The notes under the pieces were generated by a model. The model did not search any database, was not told the origin of the DNA, and worked only from the letters and a program-made list of their open reading frames with translations. A stretch of DNA of 32,000 bases from Xylanibacter ruminicola 23. Its GTDB lineage: Bacteria; Bacteroidota; Bacteroidia; Bacteroidales; Bacteroidaceae. A program made the position numbers and the translations under genes. Location: NCBI RefSeq assembly GCF_000025925.1, contig NC_014033.1, forward strand, positions 3,420,001 to 3,452,000. The letters are read 5' to 3'. Within the stretch, counting starts at the first letter, position 1. Every line of letters begins with the position of its first letter. Of this stretch, positions 23,581 through 32,000 are shown piece by piece.

Positions 23581-24873
23581 ATGAGTACAAGTAAGAATTA
23601 TCGTTTCGAGACTTTGCAACTGCATGTAGGCCAGGAACAGGCCGACCCCGCTACTGATGCACGTGCCGTGCCCATCTATCAGACCACAAGCTATGTGTTC
23701 CACAACTCAAAGCATGCTGCCGATCGTTTCGGACTTCGCGATGCTGGTAATATCTACGGTCGACTGACCAACTCTACACAAGGTGTGTTCGAGGACCGTG
23801 TGGCAGCACTCGAAGGTGGAGTAGCAGGTCTTGCAGTTGCCAGTGGTGCAGCCGCTATTACTTACGCTCTGCAGAACATTGTGCAGGCAGGTGACCATAT
23901 CGTAGCTGCTGATAACCTGTATGGTGGTTCTTACAACCTCATTACCCATACACTGGCTACCCAGGGCATTACCAATACCATCGTGAATGTAAACGATCTG
24001 GCTGCGCTCGAGGCTGCCATCAAGCCCAACACAAAAGTAGTATATGCCGAGACCTTCGGTAACCCTAACAGCGATGTGCTCGACCTTGAGGGTGTGGCTG
24101 CTGTTGCTCACAAGTATGGCATCCCATTCATCGTTGATAACACCTTCGGTACCCCATACCTGATCCGTCCATTGGAGCATGGTGCCGACATCGTAGTACA
24201 CTCGGCCACTAAGTTCCTGGGTGGACACGGAACCTCACTGGGTGGTGTGATTGTAGATGGTGGTAAGTTCGACTGGAAGGCTAATCCCGAAAAATTCCCC
24301 ACACTGGCTAAGCCCGATCCATCGTACCATGGTATCGTATTTGCCGATGCAGTAGGTGCTGCCGCTTACGTGACTCGTATCCGTGCCGTGATTCTGCGCG
24401 ATACCGGTGCTACACTGTCGCCATTCAATGCCTTTATCCTGCTGCAGGGTGTTGAGACACTGAGTCTGCGTGTAGAGCGCCACGTGGAGAATGCACTGAA
24501 GGTTGTTGACTTCCTGGCCAACCATCCAAAGGTGGCTAAGGTTAATCACCCAGCATTGGCAAGTCATCACGACCATGCTTTGTACAATAAGTATTTCCCA
24601 CAGGGTGGTGCCTCAATCTTCACCTTCGAGATTAAGGGCGGGCAGGAAGAGGCCTGGAAGTTTATCGATGCCCTGCAGATTTTCTCACTGCTGGCTAACG
24701 TGGCCGATGTGAAGAGTCTGGTTATCCACCCATATACCACCACTCACTCACAGCTGAGTCCTGAGGAGCTGGCTGAGCAGCACATCACGCCATCAACCAT
24801 CCGCTTGAGTATCGGTACTGAGCACATCGACGACATTATTGCCGACTTGTCACAGGCTTTTGACCAAATTTAA
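23581..24873 (+). CDS. metY: O-acetylhomoserine aminocarboxypropyltransferase / sulfhydrylase (PLP-dependent)
   Basis: 430 aa. [32 protein letters not shown], the PLP-lysine context [11 protein letters not shown], and C-terminal [16 protein letters not shown]. Confidence 0.92.
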
Positions 24874-24907: not shown

Positions 24908-24929
24908 ATATACCAAACGTTTGGTATAT
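24908..24929. promoter_or_regulatory. perfect 22-bp palindrome ATATACCAAACGTTTGGTATAT upstream of the cysK promoter
   Basis: All 11 base pairs of the dyad were checked by hand. It lies 43 nt upstream of the -7 box at 24973. Confidence 0.6.
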
Positions 24930-24972
24930 AGAATGCCACACAAGAGGGATTGTGAGACTGCAAAAAACGTCG

Positions 24973-24980
24973 TACCTTTG
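24973..24980 (+). promoter_or_regulatory. -7 promoter box (TACCTTTG) for cysK
   Basis: Exact TAnnTTTG match 69 nt upstream of the ATG at 25050. AGGGATTGTGAG at 24945-24956 lies 16 nt upstream, as at hemN. Confidence 0.55.
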
Positions 24981-25049
24981 CAGTGTGATAAAAATCATAT
25001 TGAAGAGAGAGATTTATTTGTTATTAATTTTATAAAAAAGGTAAGGATT

Positions 25050-25997
25050 ATGAGTAAAATCGCAAAACAGCTGACAGAGCTCGTCGGCAACACTCCACTT
25101 CTTGAGCTCAACAAGTTTTCACAGGCAAAGGGTCTGGAGACTCCTGTTATTGCCAAGGTAGAATTCTTTAATCCTGGTGGTAGCGTAAAAGATCGTATCG
25201 CACTGGCGATGATTGAAGACGCAGAGGCCAAAGGCATCTTGAAGCCAGGTGCAACCATTATCGAACCAACCTCTGGAAACACGGGCGTAGGACTGGCACT
25301 GGTATCAGCCGTCAAAGGCTACCATTTGATCCTTACCATGCCTGAAACCATGAGTGTAGAGCGCCGAAACCTTGTGAAAGCCTATGGTGCCGAGGTACGA
25401 CTCACTTCTGGTAAAGACGGCATGCCAGGCGCCATCCGCGCTGCAGAGGAACTGCGCGACTCTATCCCTGGTGCTGTGATTCTGCAGCAGTTTGAGAACG
25501 CTGCTAACCCTGCTAAGCACTATGCTACTACAGGTCCTGAGATCTGGCGTGACACCGATGGACAGGTCGACATCTTTATCGGCGGTGTAGGTACTGGTGG
25601 TACTATCAGCGGTACAGGTAAGTATCTGAAGGAGCAGAATCCAAACGTGAAAATTATCGCTGTAGAGCCCAAGTCGAGCCCTGTACTGAACGGCGGTCAG
25701 AGCGGTCCTCACAAGATTCAGGGTATCGGTGCAGGTTTCATTCCCAAGACCTACGATGCAACTGTTATCGACGAGGTGTTTGATGTAGAGAACGACGCTG
25801 CTATCCGTACAGGTCGTGAGATTGCTCAGCAGGAAGGTCTGCTGGTAGGTATCTCGGCAGGTGCAGCCCTCTATGCTGCTACCGAGGTGGCTAAGCGTCC
25901 TGAGAATAAGGGTAAGAAGATAGTAGTGCTGCTGCCTGATACTGGCGAGCGCTATCTCTCGACAGTGCTTTATGCATTCGAAGATTATCCACTTTAA
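25050..25997 (+). CDS. cysK: cysteine synthase A (O-acetylserine sulfhydrylase)
   Basis: [20 protein letters not shown]..., [14 protein letters not shown] (PLP lysine), [21 protein letters not shown]. The 43 codons upstream in the ORF track cross the promoter and were discarded. Confidence 0.93.
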
Positions 25998-29573: not shown

Positions 29574-29672
29574 TTAATTATCATTGTGAGTCATGTCGAG
29601 CACCAACATTCTTACCACCAGGATAAATAATATCACGGCGACGACTAACAGAACCATCAGCGCTATTTCCAT
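29574..29672 (-). CDS. 32-aa hydrophobic microprotein A (paralog of B)
   Basis: Not in the ORF track. Hand translation: MEIALMVLLVVAVILFILVVRMLVLDMTHNDN. It shares the C-terminal VR-x-x-VLDM-(T/S)-HN with ORF B, and a roughly 20-nt conserved block cattgtgRStcatgtcgag. Confidence 0.5.
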   Translation of the reverse strand: MEIALMVLLVVAVILFILVVRMLVLDMTHNDN

Positions 29673-29728: not shown

Positions 29729-29830
29729 TTACAGTTTACCATTGTGGCTCATGTCGAGTACCCACAATCTTACAATCATTGCCAACACTATTAAGGCGAA
29801 TGCCATCAGGATAATTAGATTTGTTTCCAT
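29729..29830 (-). CDS. 33-aa hydrophobic microprotein B (paralog of A)
   Basis: Not in the ORF track. Hand translation: METNLIILMAFALIVLAMIVRLWVLDMSHNGKL. The ATG is 33 nt downstream of a TATCTTTG -7 box. Confidence 0.55.
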   Translation of the reverse strand: METNLIILMAFALIVLAMIVRLWVLDMSHNGKL

Positions 29831-29863
29831 ACTTTTATTACTTTTGTTTTTAAATTTCTGGTG

Positions 29864-29871
29864 CAAAGATA
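29864..29871 (-). promoter_or_regulatory. -7 promoter box (TATCTTTG) for microprotein ORFs B and A
   Basis: The reverse complement of caaagata matches TAnnTTTG. Repeat copy L1 lies 28 nt further upstream, over the -33 region. Confidence 0.5.
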
Positions 29872-29899
29872 TAACAAAAAGACAGTATCTGCAATAGCA

Positions 29900-29938
29900 C
29901 AGACAAATGGTCGGGTGGTTTCAGACAAATAGTCGGGT
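29900..29938 (-). repeat. two copies (L1, L2) of the 17-bp motif YCCGAC-N-ATTTGTCTG, minus orientation, 22-bp phasing
   Basis: The plus strand reads CAGACAAATGGTCGGGT (29900-29916) and CAGACAAATAGTCGGGT (29922-29938). Confidence 0.85.
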
Positions 29939-30063
29939 ATTTGTTCGCGATAACTACACCTATTATAGATATAAAATTGTTTAAAACCACAAAACAAAAT
30001 GTAGTTTTATCGTGTGTTTTGCTATCATTATCTTGAAATTAAGTACCAAAAGTTGTGTAATTT

Positions 30064-30143
30064 GTCCGACGACGTGTCGTTTTGTCCGACAGATTGTCTG
30101 AAATGTCCGACGATTTGTCTGAAACCACCCGACTATTTGTCTA
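30064..30143 (+). repeat. four copies (R1-R4) of the same 17-bp motif, plus orientation, 20/21/22-bp phasing
   Basis: GTCCGACGACGTGTCGT (30064, degenerate), GTCCGACAGATTGTCTG (30084), GTCCGACGATTTGTCTG (30105), ACCCGACTATTTGTCTA (30127). R4 lies 28 nt upstream of the -7 box at 30172. Confidence 0.85.
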
Positions 30144-30171
30144 AACCCTTGTGGGAATGGATTTTTTGCCT

Positions 30172-30179
30172 TACCTTTG
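30172..30179 (+). promoter_or_regulatory. -7 promoter box (TACCTTTG) driving an orphan short transcript
   Basis: Exact TAnnTTTG match. No ORF longer than 12 codons lies between it and the terminator at 30299-30349. Confidence 0.5.
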
Positions 30180-30185
30180 CAACCA

Positions 30186-30349
30186 GAAAATTTAATCGCT
30201 CTTTCTTTTTTTTAAGTAATAGATATAACCTAATGATCAATATCCTTTTGACAATGAAGTGCAGTGCGTAATGGAACGAAGCGTTAACTGCCAAACGTGC
30301 CCCAGGCCAACTATCTCGCTAACGGATAGAAGGCCTGGGGCCTTTTTTT
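30186..30349 (+). ncRNA. candidate small RNA (about 165 nt) or 12-aa micro-ORF transcript ending in a strong terminator
   Basis: It is bounded by a promoter box and an intrinsic terminator: GCCCCAGGCC (30299-30308) pairs with GGCCTGGGGC (30332-30341), followed by T7, with an inner CTATC/GATAG hairpin. The only ORF is ATG 30233..30271, MINILLTMKCSA. Confidence 0.4.
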
Positions 30350-30401
30350 GTATAAAACAAATTATTTTTGATTTTTTGTTTGGCGTATAAGAATAATGTT
30401 G

Positions 30402-30409
30402 TATATTTG
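30402..30409 (+). promoter_or_regulatory. -7 promoter box (TATATTTG) for the riboswitch leader
   Basis: TAnnTTTG match about 80 nt upstream of the aptamer core. Confidence 0.5.
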
Positions 30410-30479
30410 CAACGTGATTCAAGAATGAGTCTATGTGAAAGTTGAGGCTACGCCTCGACATAACGTGAACGTTGAGGCA

Positions 30480-30655
30480 TAGCCTCGACCTTCGCCCGTA
30501 AAGGTTCGCTTAGCCGCGATTAATTGGGAATGTGAGTGAGAATCTCCGACTGTCCCGCAGCAGTGAACTCCATTATGGCTCCTAAGCATCAATGCCATTG
30601 CCCGTTTGGGTGAGAAGGCGCTTGGGAGTGGAGGAAAGTCTGAAGACCAGCCTTT
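30480..30655 (+). promoter_or_regulatory. cobalamin (B12) riboswitch
   Basis: The conserved core TTAATTGGGAATGTGAGTGAGAATCTCCGACTGTCCCGCAGCAGTGAA matches the consensus GGGAA..GGTG.GAATCC...CTG.CCCGCA.C.GT.AA. The B12 box GGAAAGTCTGAAGACCAGCC is at about 30634-30653. Exact ends are uncertain. Confidence 0.85.
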
Positions 30656-30716
30656 TTCGGTATTTGCTAAATGCTCTCGATGTAAGGGCGTGAGGCGCAA
30701 CTTAATTTTTGTGGGT

Positions 30717-31112
30717 ATGAAACATGAATCAATCGTCGTGGTATACGACAGTTGTCAGGCTATTGCAGAAGAAATAGCCGACAAGCTTGGCGCTGAAACT
30801 ATCAGCGTACAGAGTATTAACAACAGGCAGATAGAAAACTGCCAGAGTTTTGTTCTTGCATTAGAGTTTATGGCTGATGGAAGTATGACTCCCCATTGGC
30901 AGTGGGCTTGTCAAACGTTGCGTGGTGCTAGCCTAAGTGGAAAGAACTTTGCCGTGTTAGTGGCATTAGGTAACAAACTGAATCATGATGCAGATAAAAT
31001 TTGCCATGAACTGCGTGAACGCCATGCGCACATTGTTGGCGAACAGCTATATGCTGAAACGCCCCAATGCAATCTCGAAAATTGGATATGTTCTGTTTCA
31101 CCTAATTTATAA
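30717..31112 (+). CDS. flavodoxin-fold protein, divergent paralog of the neighbouring fldA with FMN-binding loops deleted or replaced
   Basis: 131 aa from the ATG at 30717 (the upstream part of the track ORF runs through the riboswitch). It aligns by eye to the 31342..31836 product: IVVVYDS----CQAIAEEIADKLGAE vs IVIYGSSTGTCEAIAEKIASKLGCE; TLRGASLSGKNFAV vs TLQGADLSGKTIAI; ENWICSVSPNL vs DAWLAAITPSL. Confidence 0.7.
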   Translation: MKHESIVVVYDSCQAIAEEIADKLGAETISVQSINNRQIENCQSFVLALEFMADGSMTPHWQWACQTLRGASLSGKNFAVLVALGNKLNHDADKICHELRERHAHIVGEQLYAETPQCNLENWICSVSPNL

Positions 31113-31122
31113 TCAAATTACT

Positions 31123-31212
31123 ATGGTATACATTTTAGTAGTAGCTTTGGAATTTTTGCTCGCAACCATTGGTGTAGCGTGTCTTATCAGACACTATAAC
31201 CACAAAGTTTAG
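31123..31212 (+). CDS. 29-aa hydrophobic microprotein (tentative)
   Basis: The ATG is 10 nt after the upstream stop. Sequence is MVYILVVALEFLLATIGVACLIRHYNHKV. A 15-bp-stem terminator follows. It has no independent support. Confidence 0.35.
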   Translation: MVYILVVALEFLLATIGVACLIRHYNHKV

Positions 31213-31265: not shown

Positions 31266-31298
31266 AAAGGTGGCTGGTCGTCTCGACTAGCCACCTTT
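31266..31298. terminator. bidirectional terminator between convergent flavodoxin-type genes
   Basis: AAAGGTGGCTGGTCG (31266-31280) pairs with CGACTAGCCACCTTT (31284-31298): 15-bp stem with one G-T pair and a 3-nt loop, flanked by A and T runs. Confidence 0.75.
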
Positions 31299-31341: not shown

Positions 31342-31836
31342 TTAAAGACTTGGAGTAATAGCTGCCAACCAGGCATCGATACGTGTATCGGTCTGGTCGT
31401 CCTCATTGATGTCGTCGAGAGGCAGGCCAATAAACTTTCCGTCGATAACTGCTTCAGAATCGTCGAAAGTGTAACCATCGGTTTCAACGCTACCAATAAA
31501 GTTGGCACCGCTGTCTTTGATGCCGTTATAGAGCTCACCCATACCACCTACAAATGTATCACTATAGGTAGAACAGTCGCCACAACCAAAGATGGCGATA
31601 GTTTTTCCGCTCAGGTCGGCACCCTGTAAGGTCTTCAAACCGTCGTACCAATCGTCCTGCAGTTCGCCAGCTCCCCAGGTAGAGGTACCTAAGATCAGAT
31701 TCTGGTTTGCGGCAACGGTTTCGGCCGAAAGATCCTGTACATTCAAGGCTTCGCAACCCAGCTTCGAGGCTATCTTCTCTGCGATGGCCTCGCATGTTCC
31801 TGTAGAGGAACCATAAATTACAATAGTTGAATTCAT
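31342..31836 (-). CDS. fldA: flavodoxin (long-chain, FldA type)
   Basis: 164 aa. FMN phosphate loop IYGSSTGTCE, Trp loop GTSTWGAGE, FGCGDCSTYSDTF, and long-chain insertion. Confidence 0.9.
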   Translation of the reverse strand: MNSTIVIYGSSTGTCEAIAEKIASKLGCEALNVQDLSAETVAANQNLILGTSTWGAGELQDDWYDGLKTLQGADLSGKTIAIFGCGDCSTYSDTFVGGMGELYNGIKDSGANFIGSVETDGYTFDDSEAVIDGKFIGLPLDDINEDDQTDTRIDAWLAAITPSL

Positions 31837-31860: not shown

Positions 31861-32000
31861 TTAATTCTTACATTTGCAGTTTCCGTCGCATTGTCCTTTA
31901 CGTTTGCAATAGCGCTCGCACTGGGCACAGATGTCGTACCCCAACATAGCACCAAGAATAAAATCCTCTTCAGGTGTAAGTTGGTTCAACGGACGGGTAA
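31861..32000 (-). CDS. Cys-rich protein, C-terminal part only (possibly DUF2023-like; from memory)
   Basis: The minus frame is open to the window end. It translates to ...[44 protein letters not shown], stops at 31861, and lies 24 nt upstream of fldA (an operon). Confidence 0.5.

Follow-up and report, generated by a model that had tools for sequence, protein, structure and literature searches.

A cobalamin (B12) riboswitch in Xylanibacter ruminicola 23 is followed by two small open reading frames (ORFs), one for a 131 amino acid (aa) protein with a predicted flavodoxin fold and one for a 29 aa single-pass membrane peptide. The module lies within positions 30402–31212 of the 32,000 nucleotide (nt) stretch of DNA analysed here (the window), whose coordinates are used throughout. 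It is a known switch with a new, uncharacterised cargo that is restricted to Prevotellaceae. We propose, with a probability of roughly 0.55, that it is a two-gene operon turned off by B12, and that a flavodoxin paralog devoid of flavin mononucleotide (FMN) acts with the membrane peptide as a non-redox adaptor in the B12-starvation response. Comparisons are with 55 loci from a genome scan in which each species is represented by one genome. All are Prevotellaceae, mainly rumen isolates or metagenome-assembled genomes. The features of the module and its convergent neighbour are as follows.

30402–30409, plus strand: predicted Bacteroidetes-type −7 promoter box TATATTTG, read from the sequence
30435–30489, plus strand: two tandem 25-nt copies (direct-repeat family D2), each an 8-bp hairpin GTTGAGGC-NNN-GCCTCGAC, between promoter and aptamer
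30485–30669, plus strand: cobalamin riboswitch aptamer including the B12 box (Rfam RF00174)
30673–30689, plus strand: predicted expression-platform hairpin with loop CGAUGUA (invariant loop, compensatory stems)
30717–31112, plus strand: 131 aa flavodoxin-fold ORF (ORF list, BLASTP, AlphaFold2 (AF2) model)
31123–31212, plus strand: 29 aa single-pass membrane peptide gene MVYILVVALEFLLATIGVACLIRHYNHKV, a conserved downstream ORF 10 bases after the 131 aa ORF
31269–31295, no strand assigned: hairpin GGTGGCT...AGCCACC between the module and the convergent fldA, read from the sequence
31342–31836, minus strand: fldA, encoding a canonical long-chain flavodoxin (197 bits with NCBIfam FldA, cut-off 172; 76 bits with Pfam Flavodoxin_1)

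The riboswitch and its leader

An earlier interpretation of this DNA, made without database searches (the sequence-only reading), placed a cobalamin riboswitch in the leader and proposed an Rfam search. This search gives a match to the full RF00174 model (1–189) at 30485–30669 with 78 bits against a gathering score of 31.5 (E-value = 8e-18), the sole Rfam match in the whole 32 kb. The B12 box AGTCTGAAGACCAGCC and the core junction GGGAA...CCCGCAGC can both be read in the aptamer. The riboswitch is an ordinary RF00174 member. A B12-box match is present in 52 of the 55 loci, and the aptamers of orthologous loci score 36–90 bits against RF00174. The aptamer ends 47 nt 5′ of the ATG of the 131 aa ORF on the same strand, and this ORF is the first gene behind it, with fldA convergent at 230 nt from its stop, an arrangement that had been described correctly from the sequence.

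A short hairpin follows the aptamer at 30673–30689. Its loop CGAUGUA is invariant and its stem differs by locus (GCUCU/AGGGC, ACCCU/AGGGC, CACCA/UGGUG, CAUCA/UGGUG, CGUCA/UGGCG). Because the stem changes are compensatory around an invariant loop, the hairpin is a conserved part of the expression platform, and it is a candidate regulatory or kissing-loop hairpin. Pairing of this loop with GCAUC at 30586–30590 was considered and is withdrawn, since GCAUC is found in just 6 of 62 leaders. No clear terminator or sequestrator emerges from the minimum free energy fold of the whole leader, which does not reproduce the aptamer. The first 52 codons of the 131 aa ORF encode an almost invariant peptide segment and display a synonymous divergence (dS) of 0.57, versus 1.59 for the rest of the ORF. 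This reduced dS suggests an added nucleotide-level constraint near the expression platform.

The −7 consensus of Bacteroidetes promoters is TAnnTTTG. In most of the related loci listed, such a box occupies the corresponding position, a few nt ahead of the leader or aptamer. The 25-nt hairpin repeat is a variable leader insertion, found in 0, 1 or 2 copies among relatives; with this range of copy number, the tandem hairpins are not essential to the riboswitch. At the other end of the module, the hairpin at 31269–31295 has a good T-run on the minus strand and a weak one on the plus strand, and is not flagged by a simple terminator scan. It is probably a shared terminator of the module and the convergent fldA, as judged from its position and sequence.

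Occurrence and conservation of the module

In 50 of the 55 loci an RF00174 aptamer directly precedes the flavodoxin-like gene in the same orientation, with a leader of either about 50 nt or about 200 nt between aptamer and ATG. Of the remaining five, two run into a contig end but retain the 3′ half of the aptamer, one carries an aptamer with an internal deletion, and two have lost the aptamer. More distant members, merely 40–50% identical (P0121, P0123, P0125 and P0129), also have the riboswitch directly upstream (L068–L071). It is likewise upstream in L065, with only a 3′ remnant in L061. Whether homologs lie consistently behind B12 riboswitches had been put forward as a check, and they do so in the 50 loci and in five divergent ones. 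As the arrangement of riboswitch, ORF and small ORF recurs in about 50 independent genome loci, it is not a chance one. In L028 the promoter and aptamer appear to have been precisely excised, and the L040 aptamer is without its 3′ half.

A search of 5.8 billion proteins yields 264 homologs of the 131 aa protein, and the 120 listed are at least 65% identical. The protein is identical in strain Ga6B6 and 99% identical in D31d, and 696 public contigs carry its exact sequence. When 1.84 billion representative proteins are searched with a profile, only 34 match with an E-value of 1e-10 or better, many of them fragments, so the family is narrow. The median ratio of nonsynonymous to synonymous divergence (dN/dS) is 0.14 for the 131 aa ORF and 0.13 for the 29 aa ORF, at a dS of about 1.2, and the larger ORF displays synonymous variation at conserved residues. 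On these codon statistics both ORFs are protein-coding and under purifying selection.

The flanks of the module are not conserved. The downstream genes (methyltransferase, ArsP-type permease, fldA-DUF2023) are almost always convergent, and fldA is found within about 4 kb of the module in 13 genome loci. Gene neighbourhood was considered as a functional clue and discarded, the flanks being uninformative beyond the fldA link. A 462 aa Sde182_NH-like gene is situated between the module and fldA in L001, L072, L074–L077, L079 and L080; it is a strain polymorphism of X. ruminicola and is not part of the window-type arrangement.

The 131 aa protein: a flavodoxin fold with a lost FMN site

The sequence-only reading described the 131 aa protein as a paralog of the neighbouring fldA product in which the phosphate-binding loop GSSTGTCE is reduced to DSCQ by a 4-residue deletion, the Trp loop TSTWGAG and a third loop (CGDCSTYSD) are replaced, and canonical FMN binding is improbable. 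Each of these statements on the sequence holds. BLASTP gives 37% identity to FldA over the N-terminal 81 aa (E-value = 8e-16), with a 4-residue gap placed exactly in the FMN phosphate loop (YDS----CQ versus YGSSTGTCE in FldA). The same gap is present in profile alignments with solved flavodoxins (8SNZ). The phosphate loop motif T/S-x-T-G-x-T that follows strand 1 is missing, and YDSCQ is conserved instead in the family. In the 50s loop, TSTWGAG of FldA aligns to LEFMADG, and the Tyr of the 90s loop is absent from the window protein and variable across the family.

Profile scores are below threshold as well. Pfam Flavodoxin_1 (PF00258) gives 21.5 bits against a gathering score of 25, and NCBIfam FldA and flav_long give about 31–31.5 bits against cut-offs of about 172–175 and 146.75, respectively. 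With the phosphate loop deletion and the loss of the aromatic residues, the canonical FMN site is ablated. Database names for the protein are "hypothetical protein" at NCBI and "flavodoxin" in some JGI records.

The fold itself is retained. A predicted structure, which had been suggested as a check, was computed with AF2 from 109 family sequences and shows the order beta1-alpha1 through beta5-alpha5, with a predicted local distance difference test score (pLDDT) of 88.3 and a predicted template modelling score (pTM) of 0.86. The top 50 Foldseek matches in the PDB are all flavodoxins or flavodoxin-like FMN domains, with TM scores of 0.65–0.8 at about 15% identity. Motifs of the FldA core are conserved: LGA, DG.L...W, LSGK and the C-terminal W..I.P.L. 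The protein thus shares with FldA (PF00258, TIGR01752) its ancestry, the five-strand beta-alpha fold and the core motifs. It differs in being 33 residues shorter, in the 4-residue loop deletion and replaced Trp and Tyr loops, in its lower acidity (net charge of about −7 versus −20 for FldA) and in its sub-cut-off scores. By alignment and model, the 131 aa protein is a flavodoxin in fold whose FMN-binding motifs are lost, and sequence comparison derives it from FldA by duplication. Having lost both the phosphate loop and the flavin-clamping aromatic residues, the protein most likely carries no flavin and transfers no electrons.

The 29 aa membrane peptide

In 50 of the 55 loci the flavodoxin-like ORF is followed, after 10–70 nt, by the small ORF. 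The encoded peptide is 28–29 aa in length, with the consensus MQYIFIVALEFVLAFTGVALLIRYYNHKA, and displays a single predicted transmembrane (TM) helix, a conserved Glu and a basic tail in which the charged sequence R-Y-Y-N-H-K is conserved. Gene callers leave the ORF uncalled in 10 X. ruminicola-type contigs fetched with the window protein, and the peptide has no match in Pfam. The sequence-only reading had pointed out this TM ORF; conservation in 50 loci together with the dN/dS of 0.13 shows it to be a real gene. The possibility that the peptide is a relic of a deleted transporter gene of the DASS family (see below) was rejected, as a profile of 35 peptides scores at most 0.8 bits against DASS proteins, that is, no similarity.

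AcrZ, MgtS and KdpF are bacterial small membrane proteins that modulate transporters or sensors. The 29 aa peptide would resemble them in size, in its single TM helix and charged tail, and in co-regulation with a nutrient-stress regulon. It shows no sequence relationship to them, however, and the analogy is a lead only.

Probable response of the module to B12

X. ruminicola KHP1 has been grown with and without cobalamin and analysed by RNA sequencing, with four predicted riboswitches reported (PMC11575231). One of these, at 1604149–1604333 on the minus strand (PMC11575231, Table S5), is the reverse complement of the window aptamer with 1 nt different. J4031_06995, a "hypothetical protein", shows a log2 fold change (log2FC) of −4.22 with B12, an 18.6-fold fall (q = 1.5e-180), and in rank follows closely on the cob and TonB operon that belongs to another riboswitch (PMC11575231, Table S6). 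The other KHP1 riboswitches precede a TonB receptor, cob and ABC uptake genes, which are repressed in the same experiment, and J4031_06995 is not discussed by the authors (PMC11575231).

Two genes of the window link this locus tag to the module:

23581–24873, plus strand: metY, O-acetylhomoserine sulfhydrylase
24921–25997, plus strand: cysK, cysteine synthase

In KHP1 these correspond to J4031_07030 (O-acetylhomoserine sulfhydrylase, metY) and J4031_07025 (cysteine synthase, cysK). The order in the window is metY, cysK, a phosphatase, an AraC/TPR regulator, two small called ORFs and the riboswitch, with metY and cysK 5–7 kb upstream of the riboswitch. J4031_06995 is assigned to the 131 aa gene because this synteny and the number of intervening genes fit the tag numbering. 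Repression of the module by B12, about 18-fold, is very likely on this match. That the 131 aa gene would be B12-repressed had been put forward earlier, and the KHP1 data agree, with the gene matched by synteny only. Leaving aside uptake and cob genes, the transcript of the module appears to be one of those that B12 represses most strongly in X. ruminicola.

The metY and cysK genes of KHP1 are also repressed by B12, with log2FC values of −5.22 and −1.45 for the transcripts and −3.31 and −1.05 for the proteins; metY is up 37-fold without B12 (PMC11575231). An Rfam scan shows no riboswitch ahead of metY or cysK in the window, and their repression is probably an indirect effect via methionine or S-adenosylmethionine status when MetH works. 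Under B12 shortage X. ruminicola accumulates succinate instead of propionate (PMC11575231), and its methionine synthesis comes under stress, as the rise of metY shows.

Comparison with described B12 regulons

Genes known under RF00174 control include btuB, btuFCD, cob/cbi, metE and nrdDG. Like these regulons, the module has an aptamer of this family with a B12 box in its 5′ leader and is, very likely, repressed by B12. It differs in its cargo, which consists of a flavodoxin paralog without a cofactor site and a 29 aa peptide, with no transporter, biosynthetic enzyme or recognisable B12-independent isozyme. The earlier statement that the first gene is not a transporter, cob gene, metE or nrd gene is therefore correct, the 131 aa ORF being flavodoxin-derived. 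Full-text searches of the literature found no paper that ties a flavodoxin-like gene to a cobalamin riboswitch, in line with the earlier remark that this gene class is not known from described B12 regulons. Nothing relevant was found on DASS or SLC13 with a B12 riboswitch.

A proposed ancestral operon with a DASS transporter

The sequence-only reading overlooked that the module looks like the remnant of a larger operon. In L071, the flavodoxin-like gene lies behind the riboswitch, and an intact gene for a DASS sodium-coupled anion symporter (TIGR00785, 256 bits) comes 7 nt after the flavodoxin-like gene. In L065–67, a DASS gene reduced to a 205 aa form by a large internal deletion is situated between the riboswitch and the flavodoxin-like gene. 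L061 carries the 3′ end of a riboswitch, a 74 aa DASS remnant, a conserved element and then a distant flavodoxin-like gene. L056 shows the 3′ end of a DASS gene followed by the same element and the flavodoxin-like gene.

The conserved element consists of GTATTATTATATAAGTT, a hairpin GGGG...GUCGUGAGAC...CCCC and a U-run (UUUU). It is found about 60–110 nt upstream of the flavodoxin-like ATG in L005, L008, L009, L011, L018, L019, L025, L032, L042, L046, L050, L056, L061, L068 and L070. It accompanies the flavodoxin-like gene wherever a DASS gene or remnant is upstream, is present in L017, which has no riboswitch, and is not found in the window. The element could be a terminator, an attenuator or a processing signal.

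Between the aptamer and the flavodoxin-like ATG, main-clade loci with long leaders retain the DASS 5′ untranslated region, a bare start codon (often ATG-TAG) and the conserved DASS/flavodoxin-like intergenic element. In loci with short leaders, the window included, the flavodoxin-like ATG is joined directly to the UUUUUGUGGGA of the platform. The intact, 205 aa and 74 aa forms of DASS together with these leader remnants suggest, as the simplest reading, an ancestral operon of riboswitch, DASS gene and flavodoxin-like gene from which the transporter was deleted stepwise. Such a stepwise loss would show that the cargo of a riboswitch is replaceable during evolution.

Proposed function and alternatives

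The proposed sequence of events is that the promoter at 30402–30409 transcribes the leader with its cobalamin riboswitch, and that binding of a cobamide lowers the expression of both downstream ORFs. In B12 starvation the products would be a cytoplasmic protein derived from FldA and the single-pass membrane peptide, and the soluble protein would dock on, or act with, the peptide at the inner membrane. Action at the inner membrane during B12 shortage is suggested by co-transcription with a membrane micro-protein at present and with an anion transporter ancestrally. The role would concern membrane transport or the handling of metabolites at times when metabolism that depends on B12 (succinate to propionate, MetH) stalls, and not electron transfer. 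As it is mainly the structural core of FldA that is conserved, the family appears to have no conserved site for a small molecule or metal, corrinoids included, which argues for a protein-interaction or adaptor role. An adaptor function of the protein and peptide pair is our best guess and is held with modest confidence.

Several findings weigh against this proposal. J4031_06995 is assigned by synteny and tag arithmetic, not by sequence, and tag density puts it about 70 kb from the riboswitch coordinate printed. The protein is not among the 13 differentially abundant proteins of KHP1 (PMC11575231). L017, L028 and L040 are without a functional riboswitch yet keep the flavodoxin-like and peptide genes. 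The flavodoxin-like ORF is internally deleted in five loci, and so is dispensable in some lineages. Only the main clade has the peptide, which the divergent members behind a riboswitch do not carry. The transporter history also has a narrow range. Among 80 metagenomic DASS orthologs that are 60–84% identical, none has a flavodoxin-like gene within 2.5 kb, and an Rfam scan of 20 of them shows no riboswitch upstream on the same strand; the DASS link is hence lineage-specific and historical rather than general. The flavodoxin-like protein as a general DASS partner is ruled out by the same counts. A nucleotide profile search (nhmmer) over the 80 orthologs shows only two riboswitches, both divergently oriented.

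Xylanibacter and Prevotella are dominant in the rumen, and their succinate/propionate switch depends on B12. A tentative extension of the adaptor proposal, and one for which we would give well under even odds, is that the module is an unrecognised B12-starvation module of Prevotellaceae with a new function. The protein would be either an adaptor that gates dicarboxylate (succinate) export or another inner-membrane transporter, or a factor for the hand-over or loading of scarce cobamide. If true, what was once a redox carrier would now serve, by exaptation, as a riboswitch-controlled regulatory or chaperone protein with no redox role. Knowing the function would close a gap in the picture of how a key gut and rumen clade responds to B12 starvation. 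The module would also illustrate cleanly how a flavodoxin that has lost its cofactor site can be exapted, and would bring a new small membrane protein into a vitamin regulon.

The handling of corrinoids, an idea raised in the sequence-only reading, or of their lower ligands is unlikely. Here the remodelled FMN pocket would bind a cobamide, cobinamide, 5,6-dimethylbenzimidazole or alpha-ribazole, and the protein would scavenge, chaperone or deliver it when B12 is scarce, e.g. from an inner-membrane importer to MetH. Repression by B12, as for uptake and salvage genes, is consistent with this, the loss of the phosphate loop suits a ligand with no phosphate at that place, and association with a membrane peptide fits hand-over at the membrane. 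In the main clade, moreover, the invariant or near-invariant residues Y10, D11, S12, C13, Q14, E50, F51, G55, H60, W61, G85 and N86 sit in the three former cofactor-site loops. However, the candidate ligand residues are not kept in the divergent members that are also riboswitch-controlled: the C13 region becomes YDYSQ or YESNP, E50 becomes T, S or D, and H60 becomes I, R, L, F or S. Nor is there a conserved aromatic pair to sandwich a ring system, the X. ruminicola protein being without the 90s-loop Tyr. B12-binding domains have a flavodoxin-like Rossmann fold with DxHxxG and a ligand loop after strand 1. The 131 aa protein has in common with these domains (PF02310; MetH, mutases, corrinoid proteins) only the three-layer alpha/beta architecture and the position of the ligand loop. 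It gives no PF02310 match at E-values up to 1 and carries no DxHxxG, and the Foldseek matches listed are flavodoxins and FMN domains, with no B12-binding domain among them.

It is likewise improbable that the 29 aa peptide is the real effector, e.g. a transporter modulator, and the flavodoxin-like ORF a semi-dispensable passenger whose 5′ part is kept for riboswitch-controlled expression or translational coupling. Where the flavodoxin-like ORF has internal deletions in L050, L051, L052 and L054, the peptide is intact with its consensus sequence, and all four loci retain the first 26–48 codons of the upstream ORF. The low dS of the first 52 codons would be the extra nucleotide-level constraint that this explanation calls for, and many truncated metagenomic variants of the flavodoxin-like protein are found. 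Against this, the flavodoxin-like ORF is full-length in 47 loci, with a dN/dS of 0.145 over its C-terminal two thirds. The divergent riboswitch-linked members, which have the flavodoxin-like gene without the peptide, indicate that the flavodoxin-like protein is older than the peptide and more widely distributed.

B12-independent isozymes are a classical cargo of B12 riboswitches (PMC545781), and the 131 aa protein could on this ground be an atypical flavin-binding flavodoxin, a dedicated electron donor for a B12-independent backup enzyme (NrdG or pyruvate formate-lyase activases) when B12 is lacking. The FldA fold and C-terminal helix are retained as this would require. We consider such a redox role quite improbable, and the B12-sparing redox partner suggested earlier is difficult to square with a lost cofactor site. 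The T/S-x-T-G-x-T loop is short of four residues, other residues stand at the Trp and Tyr positions, the Pfam score is below threshold, the acidic charge for partner docking is much reduced, and no locus has a redox partner gene in the operon. NrdI is a small FMN-binding flavodoxin-fold protein that is encoded with nrdEF, and class Ib ribonucleotide reductase operons are under B12-riboswitch control in some bacteria. The 131 aa protein is similar in being a small flavodoxin-fold protein and a possible member of a B12 regulon, but it has no NrdI or flav_RNR match in NCBIfam, and no nrd genes are found in the flanks of any locus.

A decaying duplicate with no function of its own, transcribed behind a riboswitch left from a lost transporter operon, would fit the stepwise loss of the ancestral DASS gene, the ORF deletions in five loci and the lost or damaged riboswitch in three, but it is hardly credible, being largely refuted by the selection signal (dN/dS of 0.14 across species-level genomes with dS above 1), by 28 invariant columns among 109 sequences and by the confident, compact AF2 fold.

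Neighbouring elements

Other features of the window flank the module.

29574–29672 and 29729–29830, minus strand: two tandem paralogous 32/33 aa single-TM ORFs, MEIALMVLLVVAVILFILVVRMLVLDMTHNDN and METNLIILMAFALIVLAMIVRLWVLDMSHNGKL, which several X. ruminicola assemblies list as called genes
29862–29942 and 30101–30181: 81-nt inverted repeat, 74% complementary, with arms 158 nt apart
30171–30178, plus strand: promoter-like box TACCTTTG, followed about 120 nt on by a strong hairpin at 30299–30341 and a T-run
31861–32000, minus strand: DUF2023 gene after fldA, with a Cys-rich C-terminal tail

The 32/33 aa ORFs are situated between the AraC/TPR regulator and the riboswitch, and their sequence is unrelated to that of the 29 aa peptide. 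The inverted repeat is built of 21–22-nt direct repeats (TGTCCGAC...TTGTCTGAAA; CAGACAAATAGTCGGGT), and each arm lies beside an outward-facing TAnnTTTG promoter box. From this symmetry, 29862–30181 looks like a divergent promoter/operator region. The box at 30171–30178 and the hairpin downstream of it may delimit a small RNA of about 160 nt at about 30185–30350 on the plus strand, just upstream of the riboswitch promoter; this putative RNA has no match in Rfam.

The fldA and DUF2023 genes are adjacent in 11 related loci, and the pairing has been noted as co-regulated in P. gingivalis. Further cobalamin riboswitches are found near the module in L045 (3451–3638, minus strand) and L024 (3271–3412, plus strand), and near DASS orthologs in L130 and L139, upstream of DASS on the opposite strand. 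These serve other genes, a TonB-dependent receptor in the case of L045. Their presence near the module and DASS genes suggests that B12-regulated loci tend to cluster in these genomes.

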